Source: Escherichia phage vB-Eco-KMB39 | DNA length: 64,000 nt | Strand: one strand, 5' to 3' | Sequence record: OR539219.1 | In this document: positions 2,449 to 19,583 of the stretch, piece after piece | Numbering within the stretch: the stretch's first letter is position 1 | Layout: every line of letters starts with the position of its first letter | The notes under the pieces: model-generated | The model's database searches: none | Told to the model about the DNA's origin: nothing | What the model saw: only the letters and a program-made list of their open reading frames with translations | Made by a program: the position numbers and the translations under genes

Positions 2449-4268
2449 TACTGGCTCATCCATTCTTTGCGAAGGTCAGCATTATCTCCCATGAGCATTT
2501 CAAAAAGCTCTTTCCAGTTCTCAGGAAGTTTAACAACATCATATACTGGATTTTGAATCATCTCACGATATTCAGATTTTTCCAAAGAGCCAAGTCCTTT
2601 AATATAACGGATGCTATGTTTAGGTAGAGCATCTTTGGCACTCTCATATTCAGCGACTGTATAAAACCATTCTTGTTTTTTACCGACCTGAGCGATGATT
2701 ACAGGAGTTTTGACAAAGCGAATTCTTCCTTGTTCAAACAGTTCTGGCCAATTACTAAAAAATCCGAGCAGAGAAGGATAAATGCTTCCTAGACCATCAT
2801 GGTCAGCATCAGTCATAATAGCAATATTATGATAATTCAAGTTTTCGGCTTTTTCACCAAGAACTAATCCAGTGATTGCGCAAATATCAAACAGCTCTTT
2901 GTTTTTAAGCATATCAGCATATGACATACCCCAGCTGTTAAGAACTTTACCACGCAATGGATAACCGCCATGAAGTTCTTTATCACGAACATCAATAAGA
3001 TATCCGATAGCAGAATCACCCTCAGTCAAGAAAAGAGTAGTGTCAGCATCTTTACCGCAAAGATTCGCTTTAATATGTTTGTGAACCTTAGCTTTAGAGG
3101 CCTTTTTAGCTGCTTTAGTTTCTGCTGCTTTTTCTGCCGCCAATTTACGAGCCAAAGCAGCTTCAATGATTGGCATTAAAATTGCTTCATTATTCAAAAT
3201 AGCACGTGAAATCTTTTTAGCATCAAGCTGAATATGACTACGGATTTCACCAAATGGAGAAGTCAGACGCTCTTTAGTTTGAGAATCAAATCGCATGTTT
3301 TTCATATCACGAACAAACATAACAATAGTCAAACATTCTTTAACACGTGCTTTAGTTACATCAATTTTGAATTTACGCTTGATTTGCGGAATAAGGTCTT
3401 CACAAATATCATCCATAACACAGTCAATGTGATGGCCACCATTCTTAGTATGAATGTTATTGACGTATGTTAATTGACGAAAACCATCCGGTGAACGACC
3501 AACCGCAATAGAACAATTTTCTTGTTCTTGAACAATAGCATGTTCATCATATTGGCGTGCATATTTCTTAAAATTACCCTGAACCTTTTTACCATTAAAG
3601 GTAAATTGAATATCAGGATAAACTACCGCAAGTGTCTGGAGACGATCTAGTGTAATGTCAAGATAAACTTGAGATAGCTCATTAGTTTCAAATGACATAA
3701 AATCAGGAATGAAAGTAACGCGAGTTCCTTTCCATTTTCCAGGAATATCTTCCCACGATTTATTTTCCATGCCATTCGAGCAGCGAACTACAATATTATT
3801 TTGACCGTCGCCAGTTTCACCGACAAACATCACAGAAAAAATGTTAGTTAAACTAGAACCAACACCATTCATACCACCGGTGACACGTTCTTTATCATCA
3901 CCAAAGTTACCACCCGCTTTTGGAATAGTCCAAGCAGCAACTGGACCAGGAATTTCTTCACCGGTAGGTGTTTTAACCATCGCTTGTGGAATACCACGAC
4001 CGTTATCTTCAACTGTTACTTGATTGTTTTTGATAGTAACATTAATTTTATTTGCGAATTTAAACTTAGTACGAATACCTTCATCTACTGAGTTATCGAT
4101 AATTTCATCAATAAGCTTAACAAGACCAGGTACATACTGAACACTTTCCCATTTACCAAACAGAAAGCGCTCATGCATTTCATTAGCAGAAGAGCCAATA
4201 TACATGCCGCTACGCTTTTTGATATGTTCAATATCGCTCAGAATTTTAATTTCATTCTTAATCATCAC
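2448..4268 (-). CDS. 39: DNA topoisomerase II large (ATPase, GyrB-like) subunit, uninterrupted form
   Basis: 606 aa with GHKL ATPase motifs (EDNGRGIP, GGMNGVGSS); single ORF, T2-like fused 39+60 arrangement. Confidence 0.9.
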   Translation of the reverse strand: MMIKNEIKILSDIEHIKKRSGMYIGSSANEMHERFLFGKWESVQYVPGLVKLIDEIIDNSVDEGIRTKFKFANKINVTIKNNQVTVEDNGRGIPQAMVKTPTGEEIPGPVAAWTIPKAGGNFGDDKERVTGGMNGVGSSLTNIFSVMFVGETGDGQNNIVVRCSNGMENKSWEDIPGKWKGTRVTFIPDFMSFETNELSQVYLDITLDRLQTLAVVYPDIQFTFNGKKVQGNFKKYARQYDEHAIVQEQENCSIAVGRSPDGFRQLTYVNNIHTKNGGHHIDCVMDDICEDLIPQIKRKFKIDVTKARVKECLTIVMFVRDMKNMRFDSQTKERLTSPFGEIRSHIQLDAKKISRAILNNEAILMPIIEAALARKLAAEKAAETKAAKKASKAKVHKHIKANLCGKDADTTLFLTEGDSAIGYLIDVRDKELHGGYPLRGKVLNSWGMSYADMLKNKELFDICAITGLVLGEKAENLNYHNIAIMTDADHDGLGSIYPSLLGFFSNWPELFEQGRIRFVKTPVIIAQVGKKQEWFYTVAEYESAKDALPKHSIRYIKGLGSLEKSEYREMIQNPVYDVVKLPENWKELFEMLMGDNADLRKEWMSQ

Positions 4269-4308
4269 TTATCCTCGTTTGGTTTCGGGAATATTATACT
4301 CCGGTAAT

Positions 4309-4326
4309 CATAAAGCTAAAGGCCCG
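4309..4326 (-). terminator. UUCG-tetraloop hairpin between 39.1-position gene and gene 39
   Basis: minus strand GGCC-UUCG-GGCC stem-loop then UUUAGCUUU. Confidence 0.4.
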
Positions 4327-4334
4327 AAGGCCTT

Positions 4335-4607
4335 TTATTTAAAACGAATAGTTGAATCCTTAAAGAACAGCCCAGAACATACTGTTCCTTCTACTTTCTG
4401 CCCAGTAGATCCAACAGCACGAAATCCAGTATGTTGGAAATCATTTTCAGAGCAACCGAACCAGTTATATCCAGTGATTTCAATATTCGTAAAACCACTT
4501 GATGATAAAATTTTAGTTGCATTATCAGCATCAGTGCATCCTACTAAAGATACTGCTAATACTAATGCTGCGATAGAACGATTAACATATTTCATAATTT
4601 CACTCAA
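4335..4607 (-). CDS. putative lipoprotein (39.1 position)
   Basis: 90 aa; signal peptide with lipobox LVGC near N-terminus. Confidence 0.45.
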   Translation of the reverse strand: MSEIMKYVNRSIAALVLAVSLVGCTDADNATKILSSSGFTNIEITGYNWFGCSENDFQHTGFRAVGSTGQKVEGTVCSGLFFKDSTIRFK

Positions 4608-4971
4608 ATTTAATGGCTTGAAGGAGACTAATAATTCTCAAGCGACTTCTTTCATCTTTAACTGTAAAAGAAAGAGGATCGCCGGATTTCATAGTAATAG
4701 TACATTCAAAATTAAAATCTTCGGAAACTTCTTTGAAGAAGTCAAATTCTTCATCATAAATTAGAACATTACTCTGACAACTATGAAGAATTTTTCCATC
4801 ATTTCCAGATGCTGTACTAATCATTGTAACATTATGACCTTTCATATCTTCAACGATAAATTCGCTAGTCAATATTACAGCATTAATAGAACTATTCCTA
4901 TTACTAGCAGAAAGTAGATATTTCTGTTCTTCACCTTCGCGAATACGATATTTCTTACCGATTTTAAACAT
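4600..4971 (-). CDS. hypothetical protein (39.2 position)
   Basis: 123 aa ORF, tightly packed with neighbours. Confidence 0.4.
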   Translation of the reverse strand: MFKIGKKYRIREGEEQKYLLSASNRNSSINAVILTSEFIVEDMKGHNVTMISTASGNDGKILHSCQSNVLIYDEEFDFFKEVSEDFNFECTITMKSGDPLSFTVKDERSRLRIISLLQAIKFE

Positions 4972-13981: not shown

Positions 13982-14227
13982 TTAACCGCCAGTTACTTTC
14001 CACAAATCTTCGTTTGCAGCAATCCATTCAGTACGTTGATTTTCTTCATATACAGTAGTATATGCTGCTTTTTCTGAAGGGAATGTCTGGTAATGAGCGC
14101 CAGAAATTTTGTGAACGTCAGAATAAAGAGGGAAAGCTACAGAAATTTCCTTTCCTTCAATTTTCTTATTTCCATCTAATTTCTGCTCAAACGTTTTGAT
14201 ATTAACATAACCGCGAGTACTAGCCAT
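13982..14227 (-). CDS. soc: small outer capsid protein Soc
   Basis: 81 aa beginning MASTRGYVNIKTFEQ, matching T4 Soc as recalled; late promoter upstream, terminator downstream. Confidence 0.85.
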   Translation of the reverse strand: MASTRGYVNIKTFEQKLDGNKKIEGKEISVAFPLYSDVHKISGAHYQTFPSEKAAYTTVYEENQRTEWIAANEDLWKVTGG

Positions 14228-14257
14228 GTAATTCTCCTTTTATTTAAATTACATGAT

Positions 14258-14265
14258 TATTTATA
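14258..14265 (-). promoter_or_regulatory. T4 late promoter upstream of soc
   Basis: plus tatttata = minus TATAAATA about 30 nt upstream of soc ATG. Confidence 0.65.
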
Positions 14266-14309
14266 ATAATTCTCGCGGCTTTTAAGTCGTCGTTTAAATA
14301 AACGAGCTA

Positions 14310-14828
14310 TTAATAACCTCGGTCTTGACGAGCGAAGTTTTCAGCATTTTTCAGATAATAAAGTTTAAAGATTTCTTCAGCCGTAAGACCAAGACCTTGG
14401 AACATGTTCAGAACGAAATGAAGAATATCAATCATTTCGAATTTAATTTCCAACTGGTCATGTGGAGACAAATCAGTAATCAGAGTTTCACGACGTTCAC
14501 CATGTTGAGCTTTCCAAGGCTTCCATACAGCAGATGCATCTTTTTCGCCATTGCTCATACCGCCAAGAGATGTCAGAAGTTCACGGAATTCATCGTCAAT
14601 ATAATCTTTCTGATTACGTAGCCAATCAACAACTTCACCAGCAGTAGCCAAATCATCAGGATGACGGTTATATTCAGGTTTATCTTTAGCTAAACGAACT
14701 TGCAGAGATTTTTGCATATCAAGCATAACTTGCAGCGGGTCTTTTTCATCACCGAGAATATCCCAGTATTCATTTTGAGCTTTATCAGCGCCTTCGATCA
14801 ATTGTGAACATTCATTAAAGTATGCCAT
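14310..14828 (-). CDS. 56: dCTP pyrophosphatase (MazG-like)
   Basis: 172 aa from internal Met MAYFNEC; track ORF 14310-14921 carries a spurious N-terminal extension. Confidence 0.75.
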   Translation of the reverse strand: MAYFNECSQLIEGADKAQNEYWDILGDEKDPLQVMLDMQKSLQVRLAKDKPEYNRHPDDLATAGEVVDWLRNQKDYIDDEFRELLTSLGGMSNGEKDASAVWKPWKAQHGERRETLITDLSPHDQLEIKFEMIDILHFVLNMFQGLGLTAEEIFKLYYLKNAENFARQDRGY

Positions 14829-14899
14829 TATTTTTCCTTTCAATTCATGGATTAGTAGATTAATTATACAATAAATATATAAAGCAATAAGGAGGACAT

Positions 14900-15100
14900 A
14901 TGGTACAAAAATTAATGGCACTTGTTAATGCCATCAAAGGTAATAAAAAACGTATAGCTTTTACTATTTCTGCTATGATAGGAATTTTACTTTGGAATTT
15001 TGTTTTATCACCAGTTGCTATTGCTCATGGCGTTAGTATTCCAGTAATTACTCTTGATACATTCGTGGATTTAGCATTTGCTTTAGTTGGGTTAATTTAA
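14900..15100 (+). CDS. small hydrophobic protein on the opposite strand
   Basis: 66 aa, two predicted TM helices; Shine-Dalgarno aaggagg 4 nt before ATG; sits where T4 carries dam. Confidence 0.4.
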   Translation: MVQKLMALVNAIKGNKKRIAFTISAMIGILLWNFVLSPVAIAHGVSIPVITLDTFVDLAFALVGLI

Positions 15101-16125
15101 ATCTTAGCATATTTAGATAGCCGCATTTTAGCCATCAACCCTTGGGCAATATTATTTTTCATATATTCCATAATTTGTTCAGGGGTTGCACCTTCCTTTC
15201 TAATCATATCATTAACATCTTTTGATTTCCAGGGAGATTTGTCCCAAAACATAACCCTTTCTCCTGCATCAACTAATTTAGTCATTCGTTTAATAGTGTC
15301 AGGGTGACGAGGTTCATTATCTAAAACCCATACACGTCTATCTTTAAATGGAACAATTTCTAGGTCTAATTGACCGCCTGTAATAGCTATACCATTTTCA
15401 ATAAAAAGCGAATCTATAGGTCCTTCTAGAACATATACATCGCCATCTTTAACCCGTTCAACACCATAAATTTTTGTTGCCTCAGGATAAGCTTTGATGG
15501 TGATATATTTTTGGGGAGCATCTTTCTTTAATGCACGTCCCTGAAAAGACTCAGCTTTTCCATTAGCATTATAAATTGGAATAACAAGACGAGGCTCAGG
15601 TATTTCCTTTTTATATGTTCCTGGTGCTATACTATTAACTAATTTAGGCCATTCAGTTGTAAACCAAAGATATTTCCATTTATCCTTTGGAATACAACGA
15701 GCTTTTACGTATTTTATAATTGGATGGTCTTCCGCCAGTTTATCTAATCTAATGCATGACGGAAGAGATTTAATTATTTTCTTCTCAGGTTGTTTAGGAA
15801 GTTCTTTAGGTTTTTCTACTGGACGACTTTTACCTTTTTCTTTTCTTATTTCAAAGATATACTCACGATATAAATCAGGTTCAAACTCCTTTAAATATAT
15901 TCCGATTGGTGCATGATAGTTACAGTTATAACAATGAATATTTCCTTCATTATTATCACCATAATACCATCCACGGGCTTTATTTTGGTCGGTTTTTGAA
16001 TCTCCACAAACAGGACATCTAAACCGTAATTTAAAAGTTGAACTATTATTTACTTGTGCGAATTTAGGTAAATGAGCTAGCGCACGATATGCAAACTCAT
16101 TATCAATCCAAGGTATTGATGACAT
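15097..16125 (-). CDS. 61: DNA primase
   Basis: 342 aa equals T4 gp61; N-terminal zinc ribbon CPVCGDS...HCYNC; TOPRIM-like core. Confidence 0.9.
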   Translation of the reverse strand: MSSIPWIDNEFAYRALAHLPKFAQVNNSSTFKLRFRCPVCGDSKTDQNKARGWYYGDNNEGNIHCYNCNYHAPIGIYLKEFEPDLYREYIFEIRKEKGKSRPVEKPKELPKQPEKKIIKSLPSCIRLDKLAEDHPIIKYVKARCIPKDKWKYLWFTTEWPKLVNSIAPGTYKKEIPEPRLVIPIYNANGKAESFQGRALKKDAPQKYITIKAYPEATKIYGVERVKDGDVYVLEGPIDSLFIENGIAITGGQLDLEIVPFKDRRVWVLDNEPRHPDTIKRMTKLVDAGERVMFWDKSPWKSKDVNDMIRKEGATPEQIMEYMKNNIAQGLMAKMRLSKYAKI

Positions 16126-17213: not shown

Positions 17214-17273
17214 GATAATCTCCTCAGTAGTTTATGTTTATATAGTATCTCAATTTCCAACAAAAGTAAACAG

Positions 17274-17576
17274 TTATTTTAAAACTTCTGCGTAATCACA
17301 TGTTACAAACTGTTTCTCTAGCTTGACGATTTTACGAAAGTATCTTTTACATTGACGAATCTGTCGCTTAGTAGGGCGCACAGCAAACTTAATAAATTCC
17401 ACTCGACCAAATGGAGGGCTTTCTTCTGATGGAATATCTAACACCAATTCCCACGTATCTGCAATAAGTGCTTTGAATTGAGTATTTTTCCTGACGTTAT
17501 ACGGAGTAGGTTTAAATAAAACCGTATGCATATTACCCTCGCCAATCAGATTCAAAAACTTTTTTATCATTAACAA
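17274..17576 (-). CDS. hypothetical protein (61.4 position)
   Basis: 100 aa ORF. Confidence 0.4.
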   Translation of the reverse strand: MLMIKKFLNLIGEGNMHTVLFKPTPYNVRKNTQFKALIADTWELVLDIPSEESPPFGRVEFIKFAVRPTKRQIRQCKRYFRKIVKLEKQFVTCDYAEVLK

Positions 17577-17724: not shown

Positions 17725-17754
17725 AATAATTTCCCCAATTTAACCAACAAGACT

Positions 17755-17784
17755 ACTATACCATAGTCTTGTCAGATTGTAAAC
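17755..17784 (-). promoter_or_regulatory. early promoter upstream of dmd
   Basis: minus strand GTTTACA - 17 - tggTATAGT. Confidence 0.55.
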
Positions 17785-19211
17785 TAAAATTTTAATTCGT
17801 TTGCTAAAGCATCTAACTGGGCTCGAGTAGATTCATTTCTTTGATAGCGATTCTGCTCAGCTTGTATCTGTTGCGAACCTGCTACTTCGTTAACTTCAGT
17901 TGGAGTAGAATCTTGTTCAATTTCTACCCATTTCTGATTTCCTTTTTGAACACCCATCAAAAACTTATTCCATTTATTCTTATCACCATATCGTGATTTG
18001 ATTTGCTTAATGAGTTGTTGTTCAGCAGCTGCTAACTCCTCGGTTTCAATGACCGCAAGCATAAAATCGGCTGTTGCTGGAAGACCGGCAGATTCTGCAA
18101 TATCGCTCATGTTAACATCAGAAGAATCCCAAGCTTGCTTACCAACCTGTGCTGCAGTCCAAAGAATAGTTTCGGTTTCAACAGCCAGAGCACGCAATTC
18201 CTCTGCGATAGCTTTAACAGTTGTGTAACTATTTTCTGAGTAAACTCTGATGCGGCAAGATTTACAAATACCTAGATAGTCGACAATAATGATCGTTGGA
18301 ACAAAATTCTTCTTGAGCTTCAATTCGTTTAAAAGCGATCGAAATGTATTAGCGTCTGCTCCACCAGTAGGATACTGTTTAACGATTAAACGGCCGAGAG
18401 TAGATTTCTCACGCCATTTTTCCATTTTTCCTTTATATTCAGCGTAAGAAATATGCCCATCATCAATGTCATCAAGAGAAACATCGAGCATATTAGCGTC
18501 AATACGTTTAGCACAGACTTCTTCTGCCATTTCCATGGAAATGTAAAGAACATTATGTCCGAGCTGCAAATAATCTGCTGCCAATGAACACAGACCTAAT
18601 GACTTACCAACGTTAACACCAGCCATTAAAACGTTCAGTGTTCCAGTTTCAGCTCCGCCTTTAGTAATTTTATTTAGAATTTTGAGTCTAAATGGAACCT
18701 TACGAGCTTTATTCATATAAGATAGCCAACGTGCTTCGTAGTCATCCATCCAATCATGGCCAACGTAGCTATCAAATGAAATTGATAATGCTTGGCGCAT
18801 GATGTCAGGAATAGCACCTACATCTGGCATTTTCTTATTTCGTTTTTCTGGAGGAAGCTCAGCATTGGTTTGAATTTCAATTATTTTAGATGTGGCGTTA
18901 AACATCGCCCTTTGCTGAACATATTTTTCTGTTTCTTTTACTAACCAGCTGTGGTCTTCCGGAGAATCGGTTAGTTTTGAAATAAGTGTTTTTACACCAG
19001 AATATTCTGTTTCAGTAAATGAACTATTTTCTAATGCAACATTTAACGCATTAATAGATGGAACGCTATGGTACTCATTAACATGAGATTTAATTAATTT
19101 GAATGTATTTTTAGCTGGACCACTTTCAAAATATTCTGAATCCATATATGGCCAAACTTTTGAAAAATAAGCTTGATCAAATATGAGATGAGAAAGAATA
19201 ATTTCTACCAC
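17784..19211 (-). CDS. 41: replicative DNA helicase (DnaB-like)
   Basis: 475 aa equals T4 gp41; Walker A GVNVGKS. Confidence 0.9.
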   Translation of the reverse strand: MVEIILSHLIFDQAYFSKVWPYMDSEYFESGPAKNTFKLIKSHVNEYHSVPSINALNVALENSSFTETEYSGVKTLISKLTDSPEDHSWLVKETEKYVQQRAMFNATSKIIEIQTNAELPPEKRNKKMPDVGAIPDIMRQALSISFDSYVGHDWMDDYEARWLSYMNKARKVPFRLKILNKITKGGAETGTLNVLMAGVNVGKSLGLCSLAADYLQLGHNVLYISMEMAEEVCAKRIDANMLDVSLDDIDDGHISYAEYKGKMEKWREKSTLGRLIVKQYPTGGADANTFRSLLNELKLKKNFVPTIIIVDYLGICKSCRIRVYSENSYTTVKAIAEELRALAVETETILWTAAQVGKQAWDSSDVNMSDIAESAGLPATADFMLAVIETEELAAAEQQLIKQIKSRYGDKNKWNKFLMGVQKGNQKWVEIEQDSTPTEVNEVAGSQQIQAEQNRYQRNESTRAQLDALANELKF

Positions 19212-19220
19212 ACTTACTCC

Positions 19221-19583
19221 TTAAAAGAATTTAAATTTTTTCTTTGACCTTTTATTAAATGCATCTTGTAGTTGCATTGTAATACATTTTTCTACATGAG
19301 GAGCTAACTCAGCTTTTCTTTCTTGGTCAAGAACAGCAAAGTCCATTACTACTTTTCCATCAACCCAATCTAATTTTGTCACATACACAATGTGTGTAGA
19401 ACCATCTTCTAGTTTAATGACAATCTCCTGAATAACATTTTCCATGGCAGATTTAATTATCTTAAGAGATTCATTAAAAAGACGTTCTTTTCTTTCTTCT
19501 TCCCCCTCCGAAGAGGGGGACTCGTCAATAATTTCTAGATCTAAATCTAAATCATCTTTATTCATTAAATTCTTCCATATCAC
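19221..19583 (-). CDS. 40: gene 40-like protein
   Basis: 120 aa; position between 41 and uvsX. Confidence 0.45.
   Translation of the reverse strand: MIWKNLMNKDDLDLDLEIIDESPSSEGEEERKERLFNESLKIIKSAMENVIQEIVIKLEDGSTHIVYVTKLDWVDGKVVMDFAVLDQERKAELAPHVEKCITMQLQDAFNKRSKKKFKFF

Follow-up and report, generated by a model that had tools for sequence, protein, structure and literature searches.

In bacteriophage T4, one of the closest described systems, the deposited records give the gene order soc-segF(69)-56-dam-61, which the initial annotation of the locus studied here had given correctly. Of the two genes that set this order apart, segF encodes a free-standing homing endonuclease, is inserted at soc/56 and targets gene 56 (PMC2988022). 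In T6 (MH550421), the 56|dam.1|61 interval is without dam, and the small ORF between its flanking genes is annotated as "Dam.1; dam.1" (AXN58073.1). Among the 50 T4 late sites listed by Geiduschek and Kassavetis, 32 are perfect and nine carry A at position -13, the commonest natural variant (PMC2988020).

The window analyzed here, a stretch of 64,000 nucleotides from Escherichia phage vB-Eco-KMB39, belongs to a Tequatrovirus (T4-like) genome, with 90–99% identity to Escherichia phage vB_Eco_F25 over the aligned window, from rIIA onwards. F25 is the nearest complete genome checked and is 99.9% identical across the 56–61 locus. Three genes lie on the minus strand: soc (small outer capsid protein, 81 aa; 13982..14227), identified by tblastn with T4 Soc (98.8% aa identity) and annotated as Soc in F25 and SP1; gene 56 (dCTPase/dUTPase, 172 aa; 14310..14828), identified by tblastn with T4 gp56 and annotated as a dCTP pyrophosphatase in F25; and gene 61 (DNA primase, 342 aa; 15097..16125), identified by tblastn with T4 gp61 (98.2% identity) and by the annotation in relatives. 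The sole coding capacity of the 56–61 interval is an ORF of 66 codons on the plus strand (14900..15100), a member of the dam.1 family (PHROG 2024) and the same as annotated hypothetical proteins of F25 and SP1. Its stop codon (15098–15100) and that of gene 61 (15097–15099, minus strand) share a 4-nt overlap (TTAA), and on its other side a 71-bp spacer (14829–14899) separates it from gene 56, with an A+T content of 77.5% as compared to 65.6% for the whole window. The initial annotation had listed the 66-codon ORF, the AT-rich spacer, a Shine-Dalgarno sequence AAGGAGG, a late-promoter-like box AATAAATA and a hydrophobic product, all of which are present where it placed them.

Taken as a whole, we are fairly confident that these features are best explained by a dam.1 gene that is conserved among T-even phages, forms its own unit, has a probable late promoter and encodes a single-pass product. 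The arrangement is that of an ordinary T6-like T-even locus without dam or segF, and the gene itself is already catalogued: as dam.1 of T6, as PHROG 2024 and in hundreds of "hypothetical protein" entries. The proteins of F25 and SP1 are 100% identical to the window product and are annotated as "hypothetical protein" in the same slot, as they are in RB55 and about 500 other Tequatrovirus records. What the initial annotation had described as a small membrane ORF of this phage is thus conserved as a known gene, since T6 calls it dam.1.

T6 shares with the window the dam-less interval, the same spacer sequence including AATAAATA, the same Shine-Dalgarno sequence and the convergent orientation with gene 61, and differs from it by having two additional small ORFs in the soc–56 gap. 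The start position of the T6 ORF (L028 3232–3432) reads ATT, where all other lineages have ATG; the T6 record therefore starts the CDS at Met6 (61 aa), without a Shine-Dalgarno sequence. Either initiation occurs at ATT in T6 or expression is lower there.

T4 has the gene as well. Its ORF lies between dam (L003 3847–4626, in the coordinates of the T4 locus) and 61, at L003 4739–4939 (NC_000866 about 17738–17938), and resembles that of the window in its product (92% aa identity), in the same Shine-Dalgarno sequence, in the same 4-nt overlap with the gene 61 stop and in a NATAAATA box 21 nt upstream. It differs in that the box reads GATAAATA and in being absent from the reference annotation. The sequences upstream are unrelated beyond about 30 nt, because dam is the upstream neighbor in T4. 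The ORF is unannotated in NC_000866, in AF158101 and in the 1984 record X01416, and is annotated in the T4 clone OL964735. In NC_000866, dam and 61 are separated by what looks like an "empty" gap of 309 bp (L003 4627–4939), and the JS10 record (NC_012741) likewise leaves the ORF unannotated. For the window itself these results have little consequence, as the arrangement is standard and the ORF has already been deposited. What remains of interest is that a conserved, probably late membrane-protein gene is missing from the T4 reference annotation; omics and screening mostly use NC_000866/AF158101, and studies relying on these records are blind to dam.1.

The family extends well beyond Tequatrovirus. 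The window protein matches phrog_2024 over residues 2–66 (E=1.9e-30), and so do eight of the eight divergent members tested; the annotated function of PHROG 2024 is "unknown". Homologues at 18–66% identity occupy the same slot in Mosigvirus (PNJ-6; loci L010 and L011 are of the same type), Dhakavirus (IME540), Moonvirus (Merlin), Klebsiella T4-like phages (kv_tblp8) and metagenomic contigs. The antiparallel placement, with the 3′ end at the gene 61 stop, is the same in the window, T4, T6, Mosigvirus, Dhakavirus, kv_tblp8 and Merlin. Additional tblastn searches with the Dhakavirus-type and Moonvirus-type proteins returned 122 and 180 further records, respectively, from Klebsiella, Enterobacter, Salmonella, Citrobacter, Edwardsiella and other phages. 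Our HMMER profile was biased toward Tequatrovirus and missed the Dhakavirus and Moonvirus forms, which were recovered through synteny. An exhaustive HMM search over 1.84 billion representatives yielded 7 matches (the same family or fragments of it, plus one spurious 1822-aa protein).

Across these lineages a common pattern is present: 65–66 aa, a basic N-terminus, one transmembrane (TM) helix with W-N...P, then G...P and an acidic C-terminal helix. In the family alignment, residues W32, N33, P38, G44 and P48 are invariant over the full range of 18–66% identity. Pairwise dN/dS values of 0.07–0.29 (Nei-Gojobori) show purifying selection, and between lineages with 51–67% protein identity the synonymous sites have reached saturation. 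We are left in little doubt that the ORF is a genuine, conserved membrane-protein gene.

In Krischvirus, Pseudotevenvirus, Angelvirus and Lasallevirus, no ORF lies between 61 and 56; the two genes abut, at most 8–15 nt apart. Because they abut outside Tevenvirinae, dam.1 looks to have been acquired at the base of the subfamily. The loci in question (L029–L032) are those of Makalu, RB16, PX29 and Acj61, in which 61 is followed directly by 56 on the same strand. In PX29 and Acj61, the slot of 56 is taken by a similarly sized ORF that is unnamed or dUTPase-like. RB16 does carry a DNA methyltransferase gene, but at another place, upstream of 61.1.

The signals for expression of dam.1 are concentrated in the spacer. 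The Shine-Dalgarno sequence AAGGAGG (14889..14895, plus strand), read directly from the sequence, lies 4 nt before the ATG at 14900, and AGGAGG or AGGAGA is retained at all homologous loci examined. The late-promoter-like box AATAAATA (14870..14877, plus strand) lies 22 nt before the ATG and has A at -13 instead of T. Eight upstream regions that otherwise cannot be aligned (window, T4, L009, fPS-90, L012, Mosigvirus, Dhakavirus and kv_tblp8) share a NATAAATA box 19–22 nt ahead of the start codon. The box reads AATAAATA in the window, T6, fPS-90, L012, Mosigvirus and Dhakavirus, GATAAATA in T4 and L009, a perfect TATAAATA in kv_tblp8 and ATTAAATA in Merlin; contig L015 has none. Position -13 is thus off consensus (A or G) in the boxes of most lineages. 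Only 8 NATAAATA matches occur on the plus strand of the whole 64-kb window, so repeated chance placement is very unlikely. A sigma-70 scan of the spacer found no early plus-strand promoter better than background, and an early-promoter reading for the ORF was therefore dropped. From the placement and wording of these boxes, late, gp55-dependent transcription of dam.1 appears likely.

The neighboring soc gene offers a useful comparison, being one of the T4 late genes set within early DNA, with its late promoter inside a transcription unit of early genes. It too is a small gene within the early region with its own TATAAATA-type box about 20–30 nt upstream. In the window, a perfect T4 late box TATAAATA (14258..14265, minus strand) can be read 30 nt upstream of the soc ATG, and the fPS-90 record places a "predicted late promoter" at the homologous position. 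The two genes differ in strand and in box: soc shares the strand of the early genes and its box is perfect, whereas dam.1 lies on the opposite strand and has the A(-13) variant.

On the minus strand, the same spacer carries a putative middle promoter of gene 56 (14863..14886), composed of a MotA box TGCTTTA (14886..14880), an 11-nt spacer and a -10 element TATAAT (14868..14863). This element aligns with the T4 region upstream of 56, for which X01416 annotates a mot-box/-10 middle promoter, P(M)16.53, and fPS-90 carries a "predicted middle promoter" here. Positions 14863–14895 are therefore arranged back-to-back, with the minus-strand MotA box and TATAAT interleaved with the plus-strand AATAAATA and Shine-Dalgarno sequence. 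In dam-less genomes, the late box falls within the spacer of the middle promoter; the T4 middle-promoter spacer is without the box, which lies upstream of dam instead. Scanning and folding also identified a minus-strand terminator-like hairpin (14902..14937) with an 11-bp stem (14937..14912) followed by TTTTTGT. It falls within codons 5–13 of the ORF and probably serves to end transcription of the gene 61 unit. T4 and L009 keep the hairpin, L012 has a different hairpin and T-run in its stead, and in Mosigvirus it is weak or missing; at its place the fPS-90 record shows a terminator. The segment 14902–14937 apparently doubles in function, coding on the plus strand and terminating the gene 61 unit on the minus strand.

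The next predicted plus-strand intrinsic terminator lies at 19298–19318, about 4.2 kb downstream of the ORF, so that late transcription could continue into gene 61 in antisense. One could accordingly suppose that the main role of the locus lies at the RNA level, with a late transcript from AATAAATA running antisense to 61 (and 61.1–41) and aiding the shut-off of primase/helicase mRNA late in infection, and with the peptide secondary. The convergent orientation with overlapping stop codons and the long stretch before 19298–19318 are in line with such a role, as is the report that several T4 sites are transcribed on both strands at different times (PMC2988020). However, the purifying selection at the protein level and the invariant residues show that the peptide itself is selected, and a promoter alone would suffice for an antisense function, which needs neither a conserved 66-codon frame nor a strong Shine-Dalgarno sequence. 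The two roles can also coexist. We consider an RNA-level main role quite improbable, and return to dam.1 as a protein-coding gene.

The predicted product is strongly hydrophobic (GRAVY 1.29), with a 23-residue hydrophobic core at residues 19–41. All five basic residues (K4, K13, K16, K17 and R18) fall at positions 4–18, and acidic residues are limited to the C-terminal D53 and D57. The C-terminus is hydrophobic and ends in ...DLAFALVGLI. AlphaFold2 models helices at 2–12, 16–42 and 52–63 with a mean pLDDT of 78. This model and charge distribution are best read as an inner-membrane protein that spans the membrane once (N-in/C-out) and ends in a short periplasmic tail, though the C-terminal segment could instead form a short second membrane helix rather than lie in the periplasm. 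The conserved polar W-N pair within the TM helix suggests helix-helix association, going by the family alignment.

Searches for a characterized relative gave no functional lead. Pfam and NCBIfam hold no family for the window protein, and Pfam scans of eight divergent members returned noise only (COX7B, SNARE), with nothing else at E≤1. Sequence and profile searches of the PDB gave only insignificant hydrophobic matches (NqrE, E=0.022; YejA, E about 0.1). Foldseek against BFVD recovered the protein's own family and two weak small-helical matches, one of them in Enterobacter phage CIP9, which agrees with the tblastn matches to homologues in Enterobacter phages. No paralogue of dam.1 was found among the six-frame ORFs of the F25 genome. 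In the literature searched, we found no transcript, ribosome-profiling or proteomic data for this ORF and no paper on dam.1. As there is no homology to characterized families, the functional part of our proposal is a guess from the anatomy of the protein.

Small inner-membrane proteins of lysis and exclusion, such as the class II holins (e.g., S21 68) and T4 RI and Imm, have 60–100 aa and one or two hydrophobic helices and are directed at the envelope. Compared with these from general knowledge, dam.1 is alike in size class, hydrophobic helices and envelope location, and unlike them in that it has no sequence or profile similarity to them, no charged C-terminal tail and no RI-type periplasmic domain. 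That the product is itself a small holin or pinholin-like lysis protein might be proposed on the basis of its small size, its late-type promoter, its one clear TM helix with a second hydrophobic segment at the C-terminus, and a UniProt entry (A0A482MZV5/P0025, phage OE5505) labelled "Holin". Holins typically have a charged, hydrophilic cytoplasmic C-terminal tail; in dam.1, on the contrary, the basic residues are all N-terminal and the C-terminus is hydrophobic. Furthermore, none of eight members matches a Pfam holin family, PHROG 2024 is without a function, the C-terminal hydrophobic stretch of the Moonvirus form (about 12 residues) is too short for a membrane span, and T-even phages already have the holin T, which is annotated in F25. 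The "Holin" label on the single UniProt entry is not supported, and a holin identity for dam.1 is very improbable.

Our preferred reading, a conserved dam.1 gene with a single-pass product, leads to the following proposal. The gene would be a small transcription unit by itself, on the other strand from the early genes around it. Its transcription would probably be driven by AATAAATA, a variant late promoter of the gp55 type that lies 22 nt ahead of the ATG, and its strong Shine-Dalgarno sequence would direct translation. In the protein, the basic amphipathic N-terminus (K4, K13, K16, K17, R18) would lie in the cytoplasm, a single TM helix (about 19–42) would hold the invariant W32-N33...P38 motif, and a tail of about 24 residues, with G44, P48 and a short acidic helix (D53, D57), would reach into the periplasm. 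We infer that, in the late phase of infection, such a product may work at the envelope as an accessory factor rather than an enzyme; it could, for example, bind or modulate some other component of lysis timing in the membrane or periplasm, or alter membrane integrity. Contacts would be made through the TM helix and the periplasmic tail, and candidate roles are lysis timing, lysis inhibition, membrane integrity and exclusion. A specific envelope role late in infection is a tentative suggestion, and rather doubtful. In a broader version, the Tevenvirinae would have gained a gene of their own between 61 and 56, at the root of the subfamily, which is expressed late from the "wrong" strand and serves an unrecognized envelope role as infection ends (in lysis timing, lysis inhibition or exclusion); the transcript might also act antisense to the primase mRNA. 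As a complete account this is unlikely; if true, a Tevenvirinae-specific late envelope gene would be a new gene on the T4 reference map.

In another alternative, the ORF is untranslated and the interval is a regulatory spacer (61 terminator, 56 middle promoter, oriA-proximal) whose reading frame is kept by chance or by constraint at the DNA/RNA level. The hairpin within codons 5–13, the MotA-type promoter overlapping the Shine-Dalgarno region, the missing gene call by the T4 reference annotators and the ATT in place of ATG in T6 would all fit. Nonetheless, the hairpin takes up only about 26 of the 201 nt and is not conserved in Mosigvirus, and dN/dS values of 0.07–0.29 with saturated synonymous sites speak for constraint on the protein. 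Length (65–66 aa), Shine-Dalgarno sequence and the TM and motif pattern are moreover kept across genera down to 18–25% identity. An untranslated spacer is highly improbable, and we continue with dam.1 as a translated gene.

The remaining question is how the locus came to be so compact in comparison to T4. No homologue of T4 Dam was found in the 64-kb window (tblastn, best E=0.58) or in the whole F25 genome (tblastn, E≤1), and the methyltransferase motif [DNS]PP[YFW] is absent from all window ORFs of at least 120 aa. SegF (GIY-YIG) is likewise missing between soc and 56, with a best E of 9 by tblastn over the window; the gap between these genes measures 82 bp (14228–14309) and its sole content is the late promoter and Shine-Dalgarno sequence of soc. 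The initial annotation was right that segF and dam are missing at this locus and that T4 has the less compact region. The comparison with T4 and T6 qualifies this result, as the arrangement is a common one and the T6 interval is the same. The 272-bp interval (14829–15100), used as a query, matches 502 phage records, and the window-type upstream sequence is present in 334 of these. The remaining records align from the Shine-Dalgarno sequence onward only, because something else, mostly dam, sits upstream. T4-type Dam, counted at ≥90% aa identity, occurs in 182 phage records only, which by these sequence matches is only about a third of the ORF-carrying records.

The compact soc-56-ORF-61 order is also found in the divergent Mosigvirus-type contig L011, in the metagenomic contig L015 and in Dhakavirus. 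Given this distribution and its commonness, T4 is the genome with extra cassettes. Judged by this comparison of sequences, the compaction is the mere absence of two optional cassettes of T4, segF (soc/56) and dam, and the compact soc-56-dam.1-61 order looks to be the older one, with dam and segF of T4 as later additions. By alignment, the T4 dam cassette (L003 about 3848–4727) is flanked by the MotA box of the gene 56 middle promoter on one side and by the dam.1 Shine-Dalgarno sequence on the other. In fPS-90 (L021 1845–2495), IME340, GRNsp7 and WL-3, a homing endonuclease gene takes the position of T4 dam between 56 and dam.1, so that insertions recur at the junction by the 56 middle promoter. 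This junction between the 56 middle promoter and dam.1 is a clear cassette slot, holding dam, a homing endonuclease or nothing, depending on the phage.

The claim of the initial annotation that the small membrane ORF is carried instead of dam, the methyltransferase having been lost or swapped at the locus, draws on the absence of dam from the window and F25 and on the ORF being all that is encoded between 56 and 61, but has next to no chance of being correct and is refuted by the T4 locus itself, because in T4 (L003) and other Tequatroviruses with dam the ORF is found right beside it, the ORF occurs with or without dam in about 500 records, and it is present in genera whose examined loci have no dam here.

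Gene 56 itself stands apart from its neighbors. Its product is 73.8% identical to T4 gp56 (tblastn, 172 aa, 14828–14313), as compared to 98% for the products of the flanking soc and gene 61, and by this measure the window gene 56 is an allele diverged from the T4 gene. Divergence at this gene fits, because SegF targets gene 56 (PMC2988022). The diverged gp56 is consistent with a SegF-free (T2/T6-type) allele of the SegF target gene, and also with localized gene conversion in T4-type genomes. A 203-aa minus-strand ORF with a GTG start (14310–14921) was rejected as a separate candidate, being merely gene 56 extended upstream. Further along the window, F25 is about 300 bp longer between sp/61.4 and the dmd region (F25 18564–18901 versus window 17271–17308). 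The extra stretch corresponds to a small ORF, F25_0038, and represents another small indel between close relatives.
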